Assembly: GCA_938048735.1 (NCBI GenBank)
Contig: CALIUM010000024.1
Span: 1,478 to 65,477, forward strand
DNA: 64,000 nucleotides
Direction: 5' to 3'
Source: an uncultured archaeon
GTDB taxonomy: Archaea > Thermoproteota > Bathyarchaeia > TCS64
Part shown: one piece after another, positions 12,647-45,956 of the stretch
Layout of the letters: each line of letters begins with the position of its first letter
Position numbering within the stretch: position 1 is the first letter of the stretch
Position numbers and translations under genes: made by a program
Notes under the pieces: model-generated
What the model was told of the DNA's origin: nothing
The model's input: the letters and a program-made list of their open reading frames with translations, nothing else
Databases searched by the model: none

Positions 12647-13702
12647 TTGATAAGGATAGCTTTAGCTGGGGTTGGGAACTGCTGCTCAGCTCTAATCCAG
12701 GGTTTGCACCATTACAGGATGACAGAGAACCCCTTAGGCCTTATCCATGAGGTCTTGGGGGGCTACAGGGCCTCTGATATCGAGGTCGTAGCGGCCTTCG
12801 ACATAGACCGAAGAAAGGTTGGGAGAGACCTCTCCGAAGCCGTCTTCGCAGGCCCTAACACCGTACCCCGCATGGTTGATCTCCCGCACCTAGGAGTGAC
12901 CGTGTTGAGGGGGCCCGTCCTAGACGGCCTCGGTCCTCTCACTAAGAACCTAATAGAGGTCGAGGGGCTTGAGGGTTTTTCAAACATAGCTGAGGAGCTT
13001 GAGAGGCGTGAGGTGGACCTTCTCATAAACCTTATCTCCGGGGGCGCCGAGCAGGCCTCTGAGTATTATGCGGGGGCTGCGTTGGAGGCTGGATGTGCCT
13101 TCATAAACGCAACCCCTGCGGAGATAGCCTGCGATACCTCCTGGGCCCAGAGGTTTGAGGAGGCCGGGCTTCCGCTAATAGGTGACGACCTCCTAGATCA
13201 GGTTGGAGCAACCGCAGTCCATATGGGGATATTGGAGTTCCTGAATAGAAGGGGCGTCCATATAGATGAGAGCTACCAGCTTGATGTGGGTGGGGGAATG
13301 GAGTCCCTCGACACGCTCGGAAGAACCAAAGAGTTCAAGAGGAGGGTGAAGACAGGGGCTGTATCTTCATCAATTCCCTACAATTTTCCGCTTGTTTCCG
13401 GTTCAACCGACTATGTGGACTTCTTGGAGGATAAGAGGGAGAGCTTCCTTTGGGTGAAGGGGAGATACTTCTCAGGAGCTGAGTTCACCATGGATATCAA
13501 GATGACCACAAGGGATGCCCCAAACGCCGGTGCGGTGCTCATAGACGTGATTCGGGCGACGAAACTAGCCATGGAGAGAGGGATCGGGGGGGTTATCACG
13601 CCTATAGCCGCCTATGGATTCAAGAGGAGCCCGAAGAGATATCCGCTAACGGAGGCCCAGGGGCTCTTCGAGAGATTCGTAGAAGAGCTGGGTGGGGGCT
13701 AG
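12647..13702 (+). CDS. myo-Inositol-1-phosphate synthase (archaeal MIPS)
   Basis: 351 aa with N-terminal Rossmann IALAGVGNC and the MIPS catalytic domain pattern. Confidence 0.8.
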   Translation: MIRIALAGVGNCCSALIQGLHHYRMTENPLGLIHEVLGGYRASDIEVVAAFDIDRRKVGRDLSEAVFAGPNTVPRMVDLPHLGVTVLRGPVLDGLGPLTKNLIEVEGLEGFSNIAEELERREVDLLINLISGGAEQASEYYAGAALEAGCAFINATPAEIACDTSWAQRFEEAGLPLIGDDLLDQVGATAVHMGILEFLNRRGVHIDESYQLDVGGGMESLDTLGRTKEFKRRVKTGAVSSSIPYNFPLVSGSTDYVDFLEDKRESFLWVKGRYFSGAEFTMDIKMTTRDAPNAGAVLIDVIRATKLAMERGIGGVITPIAAYGFKRSPKRYPLTEAQGLFERFVEELGGG

Positions 13703-14464
13703 TTGAACTTAATATTCATTCTTGGAACTGCGGGCTCTGGGAAGTCTGAACTCACGGGCTCCTTCACGAGCTGGCTTGAACAGCAGGGGGAGGATGTCAT
13801 CTCGGTTAACCTAGACCCGGGTGCCATCACCCTACCCTACTCGCCGAGCGTCAGCGTCAGGGACTACGTTAAAGTGGAGGAGGTGATGGAGGAGTACTGC
13901 TTAGGACCTAACGGTGGATTAATGCTTGCCTGCGACATGATCATAGACGTTATCGATGAGATATACAGGGAGATCCAGGAGTTCGTACCAGAGGTCGTCC
14001 TCATAGATACCCCTGGCCAGTTGGAGCTCTTCGCCTTCAGGGATACCGGCGCGAGGATAGCTGAGAAGCTCGCAGAGGAATCCAAGGCCATCATATACCT
14101 CTTCGACTCGGTGTTCTGCCGAGACCCCCTGAACTATGTGATGAACATGTTCATAGCCTCGGCGATCAACACCCGCTTCCTCCTACCCCAAGTCTCAGCC
14201 TTATCAAAAGTGGACCTTCTCTCCGAGGAGGAGATCGAGGGGATAATAGGGTGGGGGGAAGACCCCCTGCTCCTAGAGGCTGCTATAGACTCGAGGCTGG
14301 AAGGGGTCGACAGGATCCTGAGCCAGGATACGATGGATATAATCAACAGGCTTGGCCTCGAGTTCAATCCTATTCCAATATCATCAAGAACCTATGAGGG
14401 GTTCAGCTGGTTATACTCTGAACTCGCAAGGATTCTAACCCGAGGAGAGAAGTTCACCCAGTGA
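13703..14464 (+). CDS. GPN-loop GTPase
   Basis: P-loop GTAGSGKS, the GPN motif LGPNGG, and the GTP-specificity motif SKVD. Confidence 0.85.
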   Translation: MNLIFILGTAGSGKSELTGSFTSWLEQQGEDVISVNLDPGAITLPYSPSVSVRDYVKVEEVMEEYCLGPNGGLMLACDMIIDVIDEIYREIQEFVPEVVLIDTPGQLELFAFRDTGARIAEKLAEESKAIIYLFDSVFCRDPLNYVMNMFIASAINTRFLLPQVSALSKVDLLSEEEIEGIIGWGEDPLLLEAAIDSRLEGVDRILSQDTMDIINRLGLEFNPIPISSRTYEGFSWLYSELARILTRGEKFTQ

Positions 14465-39601: not shown

Positions 39602-40072
39602 TTGCAACCCTCTCTTAGTAAGCCCTTTGTGATAAACATGAGCCGCCCCCCTTTCCGGATAAGGGTCAGAATAGGACAGGTTGAGGTTGAGATAGGGGGG
39701 GACAGGGAGGAGGTGATATCCACCCTTGACGAGTTAGGTGGCATCGTAGGGAAGGTTCAAGATGCCTTTAAGCTGGAGGGGGGGACAAACCTCAGCCTTA
39801 AACCTAGGGCCGTCATGGAGGATTTTCCCAAGATCCCAGTGACAAACCAGTGTAGCGAGGCCGTGATCTCGCTCCTCTCGACGGACTGGGGTAAAACACC
39901 TCGAACCCTCTCCGAGATCCGGGAGGCGATGGAGGCTAATGCGATATTCTTCCCGAAGACAACTCTGTCAGGGGTTCTGGTATGGCTGGTCAAGAAGAAC
40001 AAGATCAGGAGATGGAAGGATAAGAGGAGGGGGTATGTTTATACTATTCATGAGGTAGGAGATGATGGTTAG
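39602..40072 (+). CDS. wHTH DNA-binding protein, tandem paralog 1 (unknown N-domain plus C-terminal winged helix); probable start MSRPPF at 39638
   Basis: The N-terminal domain (FRIRVRIGQVEVEIGGDREEVISTLDEL) is paralogous to the next gene. The C-terminal domain is wHTH-like (RTLSEIREAMEANAIFFPKTTLSGVLVWLVKKNKI). Confidence 0.5.
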   Translation: MQPSLSKPFVINMSRPPFRIRVRIGQVEVEIGGDREEVISTLDELGGIVGKVQDAFKLEGGTNLSLKPRAVMEDFPKIPVTNQCSEAVISLLSTDWGKTPRTLSEIREAMEANAIFFPKTTLSGVLVWLVKKNKIRRWKDKRRGYVYTIHEVGDDG

Positions 40073-40529
40073 ATTTAAGTTGAGTATAAAGACTCAATTC
40101 TGCGAGCTTGAGATAGAAGGCGACTCAACATCAGAGATTCTAGAAGCCCTGAGGGGTTTAGATAAAGGATTTTTAGAAGAGGCAAAAGGGATCGTGTCAT
40201 CAATTATGGAGACCTCAATAGATGATGATCTCAAGAGTATAGTGGAGACGAGACATGATGGCCCCTTGATCGTAACCAAGAAAGATCTATCTCATTATGA
40301 AGCTATAGGAATTGTTCTATACTGTTCTAAGAACCATCAAGCCACCTCTAGGCAGATTAAGGATAGGCTCACAGCGAGTGGGAAGAAGGTTACTGTCCCT
40401 GCTAGGCTGAACGAGATGGTTAGGAAGGGCCTCGTCTTCAAGCCGGAGGAGAGGGGGGCTTTTTACAAGCTGTCCACGAAGGGGTTGAAATGGATGGAGG
40501 AGGAGGTCATACCTAGGCTTCGGAGGTAG
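40062..40529 (+). CDS. wHTH DNA-binding protein, tandem paralog 2
   Basis: The N-terminal domain (VRFKLSIKTQFCELEIEGDSTSEILEAL) parallels the previous gene. C-terminal wHTH (ATSRQIKDRLTASGKKVTVPARLNEMVRKGLV). The local sequence is visibly less GC-rich than the surrounding genes. Confidence 0.5.
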   Translation: MMVRFKLSIKTQFCELEIEGDSTSEILEALRGLDKGFLEEAKGIVSSIMETSIDDDLKSIVETRHDGPLIVTKKDLSHYEAIGIVLYCSKNHQATSRQIKDRLTASGKKVTVPARLNEMVRKGLVFKPEERGAFYKLSTKGLKWMEEEVIPRLRR

Positions 40530-40842
40530 TCTCCATCCTGCTTAGTTTTTCATAAATCTCGGATGTAGCGAGGAGAAGTGAGAGGAGGATTAGATTACTG
40601 TCACAGGCGTATCCACCATCCCTAAAGGGTGTTCTCTGGATGAGGCCTTTCTCCAAGAGCTTCGCCATGGCCCTCTCGGCGGCCTTAGGGGTTAGGTTCA
40701 GCTCAGCCGAGAGCTCCTTTATCGTCATCGCCTTCCTGGTACTCAGCAGGTGAGATAGGATGGCGAACTGGCTGGGTGCCTTCTGTATCGTTAGGAGGGC
40801 ATTCATCTTTTCCCTTAGATCCTTCATAGCCCCCTGGGTCAA
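40513..40842 (-). CDS. Small wHTH transcription regulator (member 1 of a five-gene tandem array)
   Basis: 109 aa with helix-turn-helix MTIKELSAELNLTPKAAERAMAKLLEKGLI. Confidence 0.55.
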   Translation of the reverse strand: MTQGAMKDLREKMNALLTIQKAPSQFAILSHLLSTRKAMTIKELSAELNLTPKAAERAMAKLLEKGLIQRTPFRDGGYACDSNLILLSLLLATSEIYEKLSRMETTSEA

Positions 40843-41118
40843 CTAGCCTTTCAACTCCTCCTTAATCTCTCTATACAGCTTCATAAGCATATCATATGGT
40901 GTTAGGTTTGAGATATAGCCTTCAGGGGTGGCGGAGATCAGACCCGCATCCTTAAGCTCGGTCAGCCTCGCCCTCACGGTTGAGGCCTTCTCCCATACCT
41001 TCTCCGCTATCTCGGAGGGCTTCATAGCCCTATCCTTGAATGAGAGATAGCATAAAACCTTGAAGGCGGATGTCTCAAGGCCCAGATCATCCAAAGCCTT
41101 CAACCTATCTTGGGACAA
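40843..41118 (-). CDS. Small wHTH transcription regulator (array member 2)
   Basis: 91 aa. LGLETSAFKVLCYLSFKDRAMKPSEIAEK is paralogous to member 4. It abuts member 1 with no gap. Confidence 0.55.
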   Translation of the reverse strand: MSQDRLKALDDLGLETSAFKVLCYLSFKDRAMKPSEIAEKVWEKASTVRARLTELKDAGLISATPEGYISNLTPYDMLMKLYREIKEELKG

Positions 41119-41123
41119 TCCTC

Positions 41124-41381
41124 CTACCTCTCGAAGTAGTCTTTAAGTAGCATCACCAATATGGGCCCAAGCTTATACTTGTAGACCCCCCTCGAAACCC
41201 TGTCCACTAGCCCCTTGTTGTGGAGGTTGAAGAGGGCTATGTTGACAGCATTCAGGGAGAGGGAGAGCTCTTTCGAAAGCTCTTTGGAGGACATCTGCTC
41301 CCCCTTCTCCACAAGCCTTAAGAGGACCAGACGCTGTGTATCCGCCCTCTTCAGCCCCTCCAACTCCTCGGAACCCGTCAA
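41124..41381 (-). CDS. Small wHTH transcription regulator (array member 3)
   Basis: 85 aa with QMSSKELSKELSLSLNAVNIALFNLHNKGLV. Confidence 0.55.
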   Translation of the reverse strand: MTGSEELEGLKRADTQRLVLLRLVEKGEQMSSKELSKELSLSLNAVNIALFNLHNKGLVDRVSRGVYKYKLGPILVMLLKDYFER

Positions 41382-41396
41382 GGGGTCTCCCTCCGG

Positions 41397-41669
41397 CTAC
41401 TGCTTCTTCGCTGTACATCTCAAATACAGATCGGATATTATATCAGTGAAGGCGACCTTAGACCTATAGGCCCCGTCATCCTGCTGTATCACGAACCCCT
41501 TCTCGAGCAGGGATCTCAGGGCGGGGCGCACGGTGCCAGGGGGGATCCCGGTTTCCTCGGCTATCTGCGAGGGGAGGCTTGCCCCCCTGAAAGAGAGATA
41601 TGTCAGAATTTTAAACGGACTTGTATCAAAGGATAACTCCCTTGCAACCCTATCTAAGAGCTCTTCCAT
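41397..41669 (-). CDS. Small wHTH transcription regulator (array member 4)
   Basis: 90 aa. LSFDTSPFKILTYLSFRGASLPSQIAEE is paralogous to member 2. Confidence 0.55.
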   Translation of the reverse strand: MEELLDRVARELSFDTSPFKILTYLSFRGASLPSQIAEETGIPPGTVRPALRSLLEKGFVIQQDDGAYRSKVAFTDIISDLYLRCTAKKQ

Positions 41670-41681
41670 TTCAATCCGCCT

Positions 41682-42002
41682 CTAAACAACGCCCTTCTCC
41701 AATGCCCTTATCCTATCCAGAAGGTGTAGAAGGATCCTAGGAACATTTGGCGTGTAGTTTCCTCTGCCCTCTCTAACCAACAATCCCTCACCGCAGAGCT
41801 GTGAGAAAACAGCCTTAACGGAGTTGTAGTTGGCGTTAAGTTTAGCGGCGACCTCACTGGGCCCCAGTTTTGGATCCTCGAGGAAGGCCCTGAAAACCGA
41901 TTCCTTCAGGGTTGACTCCTCATTCATATCACATAAATGAAGCTCAGCCTCCTTATATAACTTTATATTTCTCTGAAAGACCTGTAAGGCCGAGGTCCTC
42001 AA
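41682..42002 (-). CDS. Small wHTH transcription regulator (array member 5, promoter-proximal)
   Basis: 106 aa with LGPSEVAAKLNANYNSVKAVFSQLCGEGLL. Its ATG lies about 32 nt from the TATA embedded in the palindrome at 42021-42048. Confidence 0.55.
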   Translation of the reverse strand: MRTSALQVFQRNIKLYKEAELHLCDMNEESTLKESVFRAFLEDPKLGPSEVAAKLNANYNSVKAVFSQLCGEGLLVREGRGNYTPNVPRILLHLLDRIRALEKGVV

Positions 42003-42020
42003 ATTTATCGAGCGTTAAAA

Positions 42021-42048
42021 TTTTGAGATATATAAATAAATCTCAAAA
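42021..42048. promoter_or_regulatory. TATA box embedded in a 9-bp inverted repeat (TTTTGAGAT-ATATAAATAA-ATCTCAAAA) between the wHTH array and the nuclease/ATPase genes
   Basis: Perfect arms at 42021-42029 and 42040-42048 with an AT-rich TATA spacer. Positioned about -30 for the leaderless wHTH member 5. A second TATA (TTTAAATA, 42086-42093) lies about -30 from the NurA-like ATG. Confidence 0.4.
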
Positions 42049-42120
42049 ATTCCGAAATGACGCTCTATTTTCCGCAGAGTTTAAATATCCAAGAAAGGAA
42101 TCGTTGTAAATGGGGTTTGG

Positions 42121-43185
42121 ATGAGGGGTGGGAGACGGCAGGTTGAGAGCGACTTCCCCCACAACCCACCTATGACCATGAACCTTAGGCTCTGCCTAGA
42201 GGTGAGAAACCTGGTCTTCAAAGAACTCACGAGCAGCGTCAGGGATGAGGGGCCAAGGGTGAGGGAACTCGCTTCCAGGGTCAGGCGTGAATTGGAGATC
42301 TTTAAGACGAGGAAGCTTGAGCCATACAAAGAGGTCTCAGGGGCGGACGCGGGCAGCCAAATTCTACCTCTAGCATCGAGGAGGTACGCCGTCGTCAGCG
42401 CCCTGGTATACACCCTACCCCATGGAGAGAGGTATTTTAGGGCTCCTGAGCTACTGGTCCTACCATACACGGTCCCAAATGATAGGTTTGAGGGCACCCT
42501 GAGCCTGAGGAGAGAATCCAAACTCTTCGAGACCGCCTGCAGCTTCATAGATGATGGTTGGAGGCCCCAGCTCCTACTCGTCGACGGCCCCCTAGCATTC
42601 AGCGACCTCCTTAGCAGGTTTGGAGGGGAGAGAGACAGATCAAGGCTGGTCGTGGCAGTAAACGGCCTCCTAGAAAGATGCGGGGAGAATGGAATAATCC
42701 TAGCAGGGGTTGTTAAACGCCCCTCTTCTCGACATATAATCCACCATCTTGGACTTCAGGAAGAGACCGACTTATCTGATTCCTTCCTATTGCTACATGC
42801 CCTGAGGCCAGGGGAGAGGACGGGCCTCTTCTCCACAAGGGCCGATAGACTGCGACCCATGGGCTCCACACCCGAAGCGATTAGGCACCCGATATACTCC
42901 TTTTATGGGAGGTTCTCGGAGGACTGGTCCATCCCACCATTGAGGCTGGATCTCCCCGACTTCTCCCTAAGCCACCTAGAGAATGTGGCCGGCTACTGCT
43001 ACAGCTCAAGCTTCTGGAATGGCGTACCACTCCCGATCCTCAAGGCCGATGAGGAGGTCCGCATCTCTAAGCGGTTTATGAGTGAGATCTACGCTGAGGC
43101 CGTCGCTCGGATTGGGCGTCTAACAGGTGAGGTCTCCCTCCTGGCTCCTTTCTGGGGTGAGGGTAGATGGATGGGGATATGCTGA
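42121..43185 (+). CDS. NurA-like 5'-3' nuclease family protein (stand-alone, HerA-associated)
   Basis: GADAGS (the catalytic DGS-type motif of NurA), LLLVDGPLA second acidic motif, GVVKRPSS. If translation starts at Met18 (MTMNL...), the catalytic Asp falls at position 59. The 3' end overlaps the HerA-like gene by 19 nt. Confidence 0.55.
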   Translation: MRGGRRQVESDFPHNPPMTMNLRLCLEVRNLVFKELTSSVRDEGPRVRELASRVRRELEIFKTRKLEPYKEVSGADAGSQILPLASRRYAVVSALVYTLPHGERYFRAPELLVLPYTVPNDRFEGTLSLRRESKLFETACSFIDDGWRPQLLLVDGPLAFSDLLSRFGGERDRSRLVVAVNGLLERCGENGIILAGVVKRPSSRHIIHHLGLQEETDLSDSFLLLHALRPGERTGLFSTRADRLRPMGSTPEAIRHPIYSFYGRFSEDWSIPPLRLDLPDFSLSHLENVAGYCYSSSFWNGVPLPILKADEEVRISKRFMSEIYAEAVARIGRLTGEVSLLAPFWGEGRWMGIC

Positions 43186-44732
43186 TAGGATACACCTACA
43201 GCCTCACAGGGGAGTACCCTGTGGAAGAGTTAAACATCATACTTTTCAGGGATTCGGGGCTGGCTAAGGGCGACCTAGTATATGTTAAACACCCAAAGAA
43301 CGGCTCTCCAGTAGTCTATCAGGTGACGGAGGTCTACCCTAGAAAGAGGGTGAGGGAGTATGAGGCTGCGATGTTGACTGAGGGGAGATTGGTCGACGAC
43401 CCCGACTGGTTCCTACACGCCACGGCCTACCAGTGGGGCTGGATGGATGAGAATGGTGACTTAAGACCCCTGAGACACCATATACCCCCTCAGACCCCCG
43501 TCTACCTTGCGGGGAGGAATGTGATAGAGAGGTTTGTGAGGCCTGAAGGGAATTGGAAGCTCCTCCTCGGAGTGGACCCATCAAGCGACCTAGATGTTGA
43601 ACTTGATATGTATCACTTGATCAGACAATCATGCCTTATCTGCGGCTCCGTAGGCAGCGGAAAAACAACAACAGCCATCTCCCTAATCTACAGGGCTTCA
43701 CTACTCAATCCGCCGGTGAGGTTCTTCATAGTAGATAAGGATGGAGAATACAGCTGCCTAGTGGAGAGGCTGCCCCCTCAAACAGTCGTCAAGGTGCCTT
43801 GGAGGAGCTTCTTTCAGCCCTCGGAGATTCCCTGGGAGGACTACCTCTCCGAGTTCGGATGGCAGAAGACTTGGTGGAACTCGAAGATCCTATTCAGGGC
43901 CCTGAGGAACCTTTACTCAACTAGAAGCCCCGTAACAAAGGCCAATCTCCGAAGAACCCTAAAGGGTGTTACCCCAGAATCAATAGGCTTCGGGAAGAAG
44001 GAGACCGAGTTCGAGAACTACATGCAGCAGGTGATGAACTCCATCAACAGCTCGAGTCTAATCCCAGAGACCGAGACAAACCCCATAGACCCAGTCGAGC
44101 TGCTGAGGAACCATAGGGTCGTGATCATGGACCTTTCACAAGGAAGGGACACATGGTCCCAGAAGCAGGTCGTCATAGCCCAAGTTTTGAGGAGGATCTT
44201 CAACGAAGCCCTGGAGAATAAGCTCTTCGGATGCGTGATCGTCCTAGAGGAGGCGATGTATTACGCCCCCCAGCGGGGGATCTTCGAGATAGGAACTAAA
44301 GAGAGCAGATCCAGGCTCCTAAGCATCCTAAAAGAGATAGCGACCAATGGAGGGAGAAACGGGATCGGTCTCTGGATAGTGACCCAGAGATTAGCCACTG
44401 TAGACAAGACCGTGGTCACCCAGTGCGCAAACAACATAATATGCCACTCCCTCGAGGACCTAGATAAACAGAGGCTGGCTGAGATCGTTGGAGGGGAGTT
44501 CGTAAACCTCTTGGGAGACCTCCCGAGGGGAGAGGCCATCGTGAAGGGAACCGCCCTTAAATGCAGATTTCCAGTATGGGTGAAGGTTCTCCCGGAGGTG
44601 TTCCCAGGCTCCTCAACCTCCAGCCCATTGTCGAGATTTCAGAACATGGAGGCCCTAAACCAGGACCTGGAGATCTCACCTATCAGAGCCACCCTCCACC
44701 CGTTAAATGAGATCCAAGAACACAGAGCCTAA
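43167..44732 (+). CDS. HerA/FtsK-superfamily (DUF87) hexameric ATPase, HerA-like
   Basis: N-terminal HAS-barrel-like region (MLIGYTYSLTGE...). Walker A CGSVGSGKTT, Walker B VIVLEEAMYYAP, sensor/Arg-finger WIVTQRLATVDKTVVTQCANNIICH. No mre11 or rad50 nearby. Confidence 0.7.
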   Translation: MDGDMLIGYTYSLTGEYPVEELNIILFRDSGLAKGDLVYVKHPKNGSPVVYQVTEVYPRKRVREYEAAMLTEGRLVDDPDWFLHATAYQWGWMDENGDLRPLRHHIPPQTPVYLAGRNVIERFVRPEGNWKLLLGVDPSSDLDVELDMYHLIRQSCLICGSVGSGKTTTAISLIYRASLLNPPVRFFIVDKDGEYSCLVERLPPQTVVKVPWRSFFQPSEIPWEDYLSEFGWQKTWWNSKILFRALRNLYSTRSPVTKANLRRTLKGVTPESIGFGKKETEFENYMQQVMNSINSSSLIPETETNPIDPVELLRNHRVVIMDLSQGRDTWSQKQVVIAQVLRRIFNEALENKLFGCVIVLEEAMYYAPQRGIFEIGTKESRSRLLSILKEIATNGGRNGIGLWIVTQRLATVDKTVVTQCANNIICHSLEDLDKQRLAEIVGGEFVNLLGDLPRGEAIVKGTALKCRFPVWVKVLPEVFPGSSTSSPLSRFQNMEALNQDLEISPIRATLHPLNEIQEHRA

Positions 44733-45011
44733 GCTAGTTAATAGTTAAACTCCCCTTAACTGAGAGCCACTCCTAATTAAGAAAATTTTGGGGATCCACA
44801 GATCAGCCCATTAGAAATATTAATTCTGGTAGGATTTGTCCGAAAATTGGAGAGTTATTTTTCTTCTCAGCTCCCTCCCCTTAGTTTCAGAAATGAGTTA
44901 AGCTTTCGTTGAATTACTAACTCCCATCTAGCTTCTCAAAAAACTTATAGTTCGTCGGGCTTGCTTGAAGATGAACCTTTGGCCAAAGCTTTTAATAATT
45001 TCTCATGCTGA

Positions 45012-45956
<945 letters not shown>

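Follow-up and report, generated by a model that had tools for sequence, protein, structure and literature searches.

We examined a 64,000-nucleotide stretch of an uncultured archaeal contig (CALIUM010000024.1), referred to here as the window, in which a block of nine open reading frames (ORFs) joins a NurA-family nuclease and a HerA-type ATPase to seven winged-helix (wH) proteins. Five of these, wH1 to wH5, are small; the other two, Nd1 and Nd2, carry an additional N-terminal domain and are called Nd-wH proteins here. The host is a bathyarchaeon, the top homologs of the nuclease (98%) and of the ATPase (90 to 97%) coming from metagenome-assembled genomes (MAGs) of Candidatus Bathyarchaeota/Bathyarchaeia. 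The original prediction had listed the same nine ORFs, and all are present with the positions and strands that it gave (Table 1). On balance, we lean toward the view that the block encodes a lineage-wide NurA-HerA machine for the processing of DNA ends, in which the small wH proteins regulate expression through a conserved 56-bp site and the Nd-wH proteins serve as sensors or targeting factors.

Gene linkage was surveyed across related genomes. A scan of species-representative genomes returned 105 relatives, the best 80 of which were taken as loci, and linkage was counted over the 53 loci in which 4.5 kb or more of sequence was available upstream of herA. (L numbers denote the homologous loci compared; L002 and L017 are both CP070640.1, and L003 is L066.) Among the best 80, each genome contributed one locus, and essentially all were from Bathyarchaeia. 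Nd1, Nd2, wH1 to wH5, and nurA occurred in the exact order and spacing of the window in 43 of the 53 loci, and all five small wH genes were present in 46. Six loci, from a distant, basal clade, had a co-directional Nd-wH variant instead. When metagenome contigs with enough flanking sequence were anchored on wH3, nurA was found in 43/43 and herA in 38/38, together with wH4/wH5 (70/70), wH1/wH2 (55/55), and Nd1/Nd2 (38/38). Because wH3-anchored loci always hold nurA and herA, the occurrence of the wH array without the nuclease and ATPase is ruled out. Linkage in 52 of 53 representative loci and in all 43 wH-anchored metagenome loci therefore bears out the proposal of a wH gene set dedicated to the enzyme pair. 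No other copy of these wH families was detected in the window or elsewhere in the loci. An idea drawn from L002 and L003 alone, that the wH array belongs to a narrow lineage, was overturned by the survey of the best 80 of 105 relatives.

Alternatively, the adjacency could be functionally meaningless, with the wH proteins acting as general chromatin or transcription factors that lie beside nurA and herA through inherited synteny. In the window, gatD and gatE flank one side of the block and pyrB the other, and this order is the same in most genomes with no functional link to the block. Global regulation is a frequent role of small Lrs14-like wH proteins, and one chromosome, CP070640.1, has nurA and herA with no array. 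However, insertions stretch the herA-pyrB distance to anywhere between 0.3 and 8 kb, and gatDE has switched sides in basal genomes (gatE in L003 and L070), yet the Nd-wH genes are still beside nurA. The results of wH3 anchoring, the lack of further wH-family copies in the window and loci, and a 76-bit element unique to the divergent spacer (described below) also speak against synteny alone. On these distribution data, we regard a meaningless adjacency as very improbable.

The original identification of the two enzymes held up. NurA matched the Pfam family PF09376 over model positions 4 to 254 of 254 (E = 6e-13; 49.3 bits, cutoff 21), and its predicted structure (pLDDT 87.6) gave as best Foldseek match the NurA of Sulfolobus solfataricus (2ygk; E = 5e-14; TM 0.58/0.64), followed by 9x1m_G and 3tal, the NurA proteins of T. 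kodakarensis and P. furiosus. D76, E132/E137, D155, and D310 are invariant across 36 homologs; placed in the active site by motif context rather than by superposition, they are the putative catalytic acidic residues. HerA matched HerA/DUF87 (PF01935; E = 2e-12; 48.1 bits, cutoff 23.2) and has Walker A (G160..GKTT; GxxGxGKTT) and Walker B (LEEA, residues 360 to 363) motifs that are invariant in the family. The longest PDB alignment of its profile was to S. solfataricus HerA (4d2i) over profile positions 115 to 474. Residues 1 to 114, where a HAS barrel would be expected, are conserved inside the family and matched no PDB or Pfam model by sequence. The two genes overlap by 19 nt, as had been claimed, and the start/stop overlap is kept in relatives.

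The pair nevertheless lies far from the canonical repair proteins. HerA scored 43.8 and 40.3 bits against canonical repair equivalogs (NCBIfam NF040937, NF040819, NF041033 set) with cutoffs of 800 and 970, and NurA had no NCBIfam match. In an exhaustive representative search, the Bathyarchaeia family formed one cluster at 50% identity, beyond which similarity falls steeply, the few remaining full-length relatives being 27 to 37% identical; these include pairs of Ignisphaera aggregans, other Desulfurococcales, Geothermarchaeales, and one Asgard MAG. Gene context was inspected for three of these outgroups (Ignisphaera, L085, and the Asgard MAG); in each, nurA directly precedes herA, and HMM and hhalign comparisons found no significant Nd-wH or wH relative, L085 having a weakly wH-like ORF of 141 amino acids. 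A deeply divergent NurA-HerA subfamily common to Bathyarchaeia, Desulfurococcales, and an Asgard genome is documented by this locus. Before the Ignisphaera pair (CP002098.1) is a 153-amino-acid ORF (L084:6364-6825) that combines a ribbon-helix-helix region with an N-terminal domain of the phage-integrase SAM-like type and lacks a catalytic domain, a hint that integrated elements may contain or adjoin the crenarchaeal relatives.

Ortholog alignments compared profile against profile supported two further claims about the block, that five of its tandem genes are winged-helix paralogs and that another two share an unrecognized N-terminal domain joined to a winged helix. The small proteins wH1 to wH5 are mutually homologous (hhalign, 93 to 99.6%), wH2 aligning to wH4 at 99.6% and wH5 to wH1 to wH4 at 93 to 95%. 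Four of the five exceed the Pfam cutoff of a winged helix-turn-helix family, among them wH1 (MarR/HTH_24), wH4 (HTH_IclR/TrmB), and, marginally, wH2 (HrcA_DNA-bdg), and wH5 has weak Pfam matches only; the general wH fold class was reached through the MarR, HTH_24, IclR, and TrmB cutoffs. An ortholog of each of wH1, wH2, and wH4 is present in 46 of the 53 loci. wH3 has the highest median identity (67%) and a near-invariant putative recognition helix, VNAVNIALFNL. Each small wH gene is a separate positional ortholog with a median identity of 56 to 67%, conserved as well as the enzymes. Because every paralog has its own positional ortholog (46/53 loci), the five-gene array is ancient rather than the product of a recent tandem duplication. 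The near-abutting gene pair noted originally is wH1/wH2, with no gap, and gene calls in L001, a 90% relative, suggested shorter starts for wH5 and Nd1.

At 85 to 109 amino acids, with one wH plus a helix at the C terminus, the small proteins resemble archaeal regulators of the Lrs14, Sta1, and MarR-like types, which are their best family matches. Their closest PDB relatives are the TFE wH and ST1889 of S. tokodaii (2d1h). They differ from Lrs14 and Sta1 in their sub-cutoff scores (wH1 and wH3, respectively: 31.4 and 32.5 bits against NCBIfam Lrs14, cutoff 90; 29 and 28 bits against Sta1, cutoff 80) and in being five ancient paralogs in one operon tied to a nuclease and an ATPase, with two more proteins that carry a novel N-domain. 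The latter, Nd1 and Nd2, form one family over nearly their full length (hhalign, 95.6%), and their C-terminal wH is related to the small wH proteins by hhalign. The N-terminal half had no match in per-member Pfam scans or in a profile search of PDB sequences, in which only the wH half matched (MarR-type); Nd1 itself had weak Pfam wH matches only. Nd1 has positional orthologs in 47 of the 53 loci (median identity, 60%). Nd2 is 33% identical (E = 1e-18) to the ORF directly 5' of nurA in the basal-clade locus L003 and aligns at 99% (hhalign) to the basal-clade L3b/c family. Its structure model, built from an alignment of window sequences only, was unusable (pLDDT 41).

The basal clade shows the enzymes in a different setting. 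Its HerA is 56 to 59% identical to that of the window, and three or four Nd-wH paralogs, overlapping one another on the same strand, lie directly 5' of nurA-herA, 92 to 100 nt upstream of nurA. Neither mre11 nor rad50 is present in the window, as had been said, nor is a second herA; in main-clade loci no mre11 or rad50 was found within 10 kb. The conclusion that the pair stands alone, unrelated to mre11 and rad50, was not supported, since in basal Bathyarchaeia the same pair adjoins both genes. In L065 the order is three Nd-wH genes, nurA, herA, and, directly after, mre11, with rad50 ~2.6 kb beyond; L067 and L064 have a divergent mre11(-rad50) unit upstream. The Mre11 proteins of these three loci are mutual orthologs (48 to 72% identity). 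L068 additionally carries a second, more canonical set in the order rad50, nurA, herA, mre11. The HerA of this second set scored threefold higher against canonical HerA models, is 24% identical to the Nd-wH-linked HerA, and had nothing closer than 35% identity among the proteins compared ("type A"). The adjacency in L065, L067, and L064 and the second set in L068 indicate that in basal genomes the pair is tied physically to Mre11/Rad50-type repair and yet is able to coexist with a more canonical set. The two L068 clusters share a contig, the second set (L068:54-4657) being ~2.3 kb upstream of Nd-wH-nurA-herA, and only the C-terminal part of the rad50 of this set is included, at the edge of the locus.

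The spacer between wH5 and nurA holds a bipartite element whose layout is GAGCg-N-AATTTC, a TATATAAATAAAA center, and then gAAATTAcGCTC. The element measures exactly 56 bp in all 61 loci with the wH5/nurA arrangement, it holds ~76 bits of information, and it occurs once per locus. No further copy was found in the window, and the basal clade and the array-less genome lack the element. The strict pattern also matched 40 of the 43 wH3-anchored metagenome loci. The boxes are invariant, and the variable positions break complementarity on either strand. Because these positions freely break pairing and the boxes are fixed, the constraint on the element is one of DNA sequence rather than of RNA pairing. 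An RNA-structure reading of the inverted repeat was rejected: Rfam found nothing there, and at variable positions 15 to 25 of 59 were non-pairs, including A·C and C·C combinations.

That inverted repeat had been put forward as an autoregulatory palindrome around a TATA box. The perfect 9-nt repeat TTTTGAGAT/ATCTCAAAA (42021-42029/42040-42048), which surrounds ATATAAATAA, is indeed present and lies within the conserved element tied to the small-wH array, but the palindrome itself is not conserved; only the window and L004, a 97% relative, have it. An equally good repeat arose in 65 of 2,000 dinucleotide shuffles of the 193-nt spacer (~3%), so it is only mildly unusual. Promoter-like boxes stand on both sides of the element. 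On the wH5 side, a BRE/TATA-like block is conserved across orthologous spacers and reads TCTTATTAACTTTACTTTTGG in other species. On the nurA side, TTTAAATA at 42080-42087, 41 nt before the nurA ATG, is conserved across species as GGTTTAAATATCnAAGAAAAAAAGTGTTGTA. The distance from the end of the element to the nurA TATA box is 14 nt in the window and 16 to 17 nt in most relatives. Sites of archaeal activators and repressors typically lie at such a distance from a promoter. A conserved promoter-like motif of another kind belongs to Nd1, which lacks the 56-bp element. A scan for bacterial sigma-70 promoters and terminators was set aside, as the model is not applicable to an archaeon.

These features suggest how the module might work. 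The divergent NurA nuclease and the HerA hexameric translocase, translationally coupled, would most likely process DNA ends like characterized NurA-HerA complexes, by analogy with which we propose an end-resection activity. The accompanying proteins would form two layers. The Nd-wH family, found in every clade and co-directional directly upstream of nurA-herA in basal genomes, may be the older layer, and the operon of five small Lrs14/MarR-like paralogs, divergent from nurA-herA, would be the younger. Within a shared control region of ~190 bp, two TATA-type promoters would flank the 56-bp site. The strict co-occurrence of this site with the small-wH array and the near-invariant recognition helix of wH3 suggest that one or more small wH proteins bind it and so co-regulate their own operon and nurA-herA. 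The binder is presumably among these proteins, and the effect would be positive or negative; for example, the nuclease and motor might be held in check until DNA damage. The Nd-wH proteins may be sensor-regulators or DNA-targeting accessory factors.

Several observations weigh against this proposal. Seven DNA-binding proteins exceed what simple regulation of two genes would need, the basal Nd-wH genes look cotranscribed with the enzymes (an arrangement that suits subunits as well as regulators), and the control region has three TATA-like boxes. CP070640.1 (L017) keeps nurA-herA with no wH gene nearby, the one such case among the 53 loci. The pair is remote from the canonical repair equivalogs, NCBIfam HerA models giving 40 to 51 bits against cutoffs of 800 to 970 and doing likewise in relatives; L068 has its second, more canonical set; and the nearest outgroups include Desulfurococcales such as Ignisphaera. 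Because of these outgroups, and because thermophilic archaea carry canonical herA and nurA (PMC4641729), the NurA-HerA subfamily may be a paralog with a different role.

Some of the same observations would be explained if the seven wH proteins were for the most part no transcription factors but stoichiometric DNA-binding or targeting subunits of a larger NurA-HerA-based machine, with roles in end binding, loading, or substrate selection, and the 56-bp element were an ordinary promoter or the site of another factor. The five paralogs have been kept one to one at identities like those of the enzymes, the overlapping basal Nd-wH genes are placed like operon partners of nurA, linkage is obligate both ways, and seven regulators for two genes would be unusual. 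Against this, the small wH proteins resemble generic archaeal regulators (Lrs14, Sta1, MarR, and TrmB, besides the TFE wH and ST1889), they are transcribed divergently from the enzymes, and the element comes and goes with the small-wH array, as expected for a factor and its site. We therefore give the subunit explanation a minor share of credence. Also rather doubtful is a hitherto unrecognized multisubunit DNA-processing machine in which a hetero-oligomer of seven wH subunits, two of them with the new N-domain, loads the paralogous NurA-HerA onto, or aims it at, certain DNA structures or sites. Such a machine would resemble wH "kite" or ORC/Cdc6-type wH modules that position ring ATPases, and its role would be distinct from Mre11-Rad50-coupled resection, because L068 keeps a separate canonical set.

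The original prediction had leaned toward an anti-phage or mobile-element module on a low-GC island, against a background of ~57% GC. The window measures 52.5% GC and the block 51.7%; Nd2 (45.3%) and the spacer before pyrB (37.5%) are AT rich, as had been noticed, but overall the GC content of the block is normal. HerA and NurA diverge from the window proteins in step with gatE, gatD, and pyrB (correlation of identities, rho 0.47 to 0.75), as closely as gatE does with pyrB (0.60). The window contains no tandem, CRISPR, or flanking direct repeats, no integrase lies near the block, the large ORFs of the window are all housekeeping genes, and no relatives of the HerA family were found on viral contigs. 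The block is a vertically inherited chromosomal module without mobile-element signatures.

A role in defense against viruses or plasmids would have the HerA motor and a nuclease effector, as in TdpAB, Sir2-HerA, or DUF4297-HerA, silenced by repressors. HerA-type ATPases with effectors are established defense modules (PMC11291478, PMC11472057), archaeal "dark matter" islands show an enrichment of HerA-like genes (PMC4158269), and nurA-herA paralogs are CRISPR associated in Thermoproteales (PMC3396285). Our NurA model also matched TdpB of the TdpAB complex (Foldseek E = 4e-8), and PADLOC HerA models gave partial matches to herA (1e-22). However, NurA had no PADLOC match, HerA scored 50 against a cutoff of 800 for the NCBIfam anti-phage model, and the wH proteins had only wH-level similarity to Csa3/CARF models of PADLOC. 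No Sir2, DUF4297, TdpC, or csm6 was found among the nine proteins or their neighbors, so the modification or effector partners of the Sir2-HerA, DUF4297-HerA, and tdpABC systems (PMC11472057, PMC11291478, PMC12914056), which share the motor and nuclease, are lacking. The pair is near-universal and single copy, and the block is fixed in position in most species, with a core-gene rather than a patchy spread and no island signature; its divergence tracks that of its housekeeping neighbors, and in basal relatives the pair is beside mre11 and rad50. A HerA-nuclease pair alone is no evidence of defense, and given this distribution we consider a defense function very unlikely, about as improbable as a meaningless adjacency.

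Pairs of nurA and herA outside the classical operon are already known. The canonical herA-mre11-rad50-nurA operon of S. solfataricus, P. furiosus, and T. kodakarensis shares with the block the NurA fold and acidic site and an adjacent HerA-type ATPase, and the basal Bathyarchaeia pair adjoins mre11 and rad50 as well. It differs in score (44 versus 800 bits), in the nurA-then-herA overlap seen here, and in the absence of mre11 and rad50 from the window and, in the main clade, from the surrounding 10 kb; seven wH genes and a 56-bp element have not been reported for it. The stand-alone operon of Deinococcus-Thermus, which has a repair role and is thought to have been acquired from archaea, is likewise a chromosomal nurA-herA unit with no adjacent mre11 or rad50 (PMC9960219, PMC12977600). 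It is bacterial, however, with no wH battery described, and we saw no close sequence relationship. Thermoproteales have several vertically inherited nurA-herA paralog pairs, including the CRISPR-associated nurA-csm6-herA (PMC3396285). As in L068, a noncanonical pair there coexists with a canonical set, and the nearest outgroups of our family are crenarchaeal; in contrast, the present block has no csm6, CRISPR array, or cas gene, its nurA and herA overlap directly, and its wH companions are specific to Bathyarchaeia. Literature searches for a wH entourage of NurA-HerA, for wHTH neighbors of HerA or NurA, and for NurA, HerA, Mre11, or Rad50 of Bathyarchaeota found no description. The claim that the block fits no described system thus stands for the wH association and falls for the stand-alone or paralogous enzyme pair: NurA-HerA pairing is known biology, and no description turned up in the searchable literature for the obligate set of seven wH companions, the novel N-domain family, or the 56-bp element.

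Archaeal control of end resection in homologous recombination is poorly understood, and Bathyarchaeia are among the most abundant uncultured sediment archaea. To our knowledge, archaea lack LexA and an SOS response, and known damage regulators are limited to a few model lineages. The locus offers a cis element of fixed 56-bp geometry and ~76 bits, seven candidate trans factors obligately tied to a nuclease/motor pair, and a winged-helix fusion with an N-terminal domain of a new family. That the divergent pair can share a genome with a more canonical rad50-nurA-herA-mre11 set is relevant to the number of functionally distinct NurA-HerA machines in archaea.

Table 1. Features of the nurA-herA block, in window coordinates
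Feature	Position	Strand	Description
Nd1	39602-40072	+	Unrecognized N-domain and C-terminal winged helix; likely start ATG 39638, 144 aa
Nd2	40062-40529	+	Paralog of Nd1; 11-nt overlap with Nd1 (operon)
wH1	40513-40842	-	Small winged-helix protein; distal end of the minus-strand operon of five genes
wH2	40843-41118	-	Small winged-helix protein; abuts wH1 with zero gap
wH3	41124-41381	-	Small winged-helix protein; best conserved of the five
wH4	41397-41669	-	Small winged-helix protein
wH5	41682-42002	-	First gene of the wH operon; likely start ATG 41927, 81 aa
BRE/TATA-like block	41952-41971	-	~30 nt upstream of the probable wH5 ATG; conserved; putative promoter
56-bp bipartite element	42010-42065		Conserved across spacers; proposed wH operator
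Perfect 9-nt inverted repeat	42021-42048		Inside the 56-bp element; species specific
TTTAAATA box and GAAA..GTTGTA block	42080-42108	+	Likely nurA-herA core promoter (putative role)
nurA	42121-43185	+	NurA-family nuclease
herA	43167-44732	+	HerA/FtsK-superfamily ATPase; 19-nt overlap with nurA

Further features were seen in the basal clade. An extra Nd2-like gene lies 3' of herA on the opposite strand in L003 (12203-12676, minus strand) and L068 (13000-13479, minus strand); these genes are 39 to 42% identical to Nd2 of the window, closer than the upstream paralogs. The region 5' of the first Nd-wH gene contains a TTTAAAT box between two TACGTAG boxes ~25 nt apart, in three related genomes only (L066:7130-7330, L064:2366-2566, and L068:6733-6933). 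This layout is operator-like and analogous to the 56-bp element, with a different sequence. Between the last Nd-wH gene and nurA is a conserved GC-rich stretch of ~70 nt (…GCGGCGGGTCGCTAGGTCGG…GCGACAAACCGCTC…GGGGGTG..ATG) with nested inverted repeats (L066:8842-8933, L067:5172-5262, and L068:8834-8933), which may be an intercistronic RNA structure or attenuator. L068 also has a DpnII/MboI-type restriction endonuclease gene (13613-14230).

Other observations concern the surroundings of the block. The herA-pyrB spacer is an insertion hotspot, 288 nt long in the window (44733-45020) and ~0.3 to 6 kb in other species; in L001 (11549-19652), ~8 kb of extra genes, including peptidase M20, nitroreductase, and amidohydrolase genes, lie between herA and pyrB. 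In CP070640.1, a complete Bathyarchaeia chromosome (locus 1281729-1303267), the HerA is 69% identical and the pair is near pyrB, with peptidase genes upstream. Three loci labeled as bacterial (L015, Patescibacteria; L030, Candidatus Desulfaltia; L037, Krumholzibacteriaceae) have the full Bathyarchaeia-type block with gatDE and pyrB and are most likely misbinned archaeal contigs in bacterial MAGs. Elsewhere in the window, a thiamine pyrophosphate (TPP) riboswitch (598-711; Rfam RF00059, 65.8 bits), a class uncommon in archaea, lies just 5' of a gene (779-2161) for a fused phosphomethylpyrimidine kinase/ThiN thiamine-phosphate synthase.

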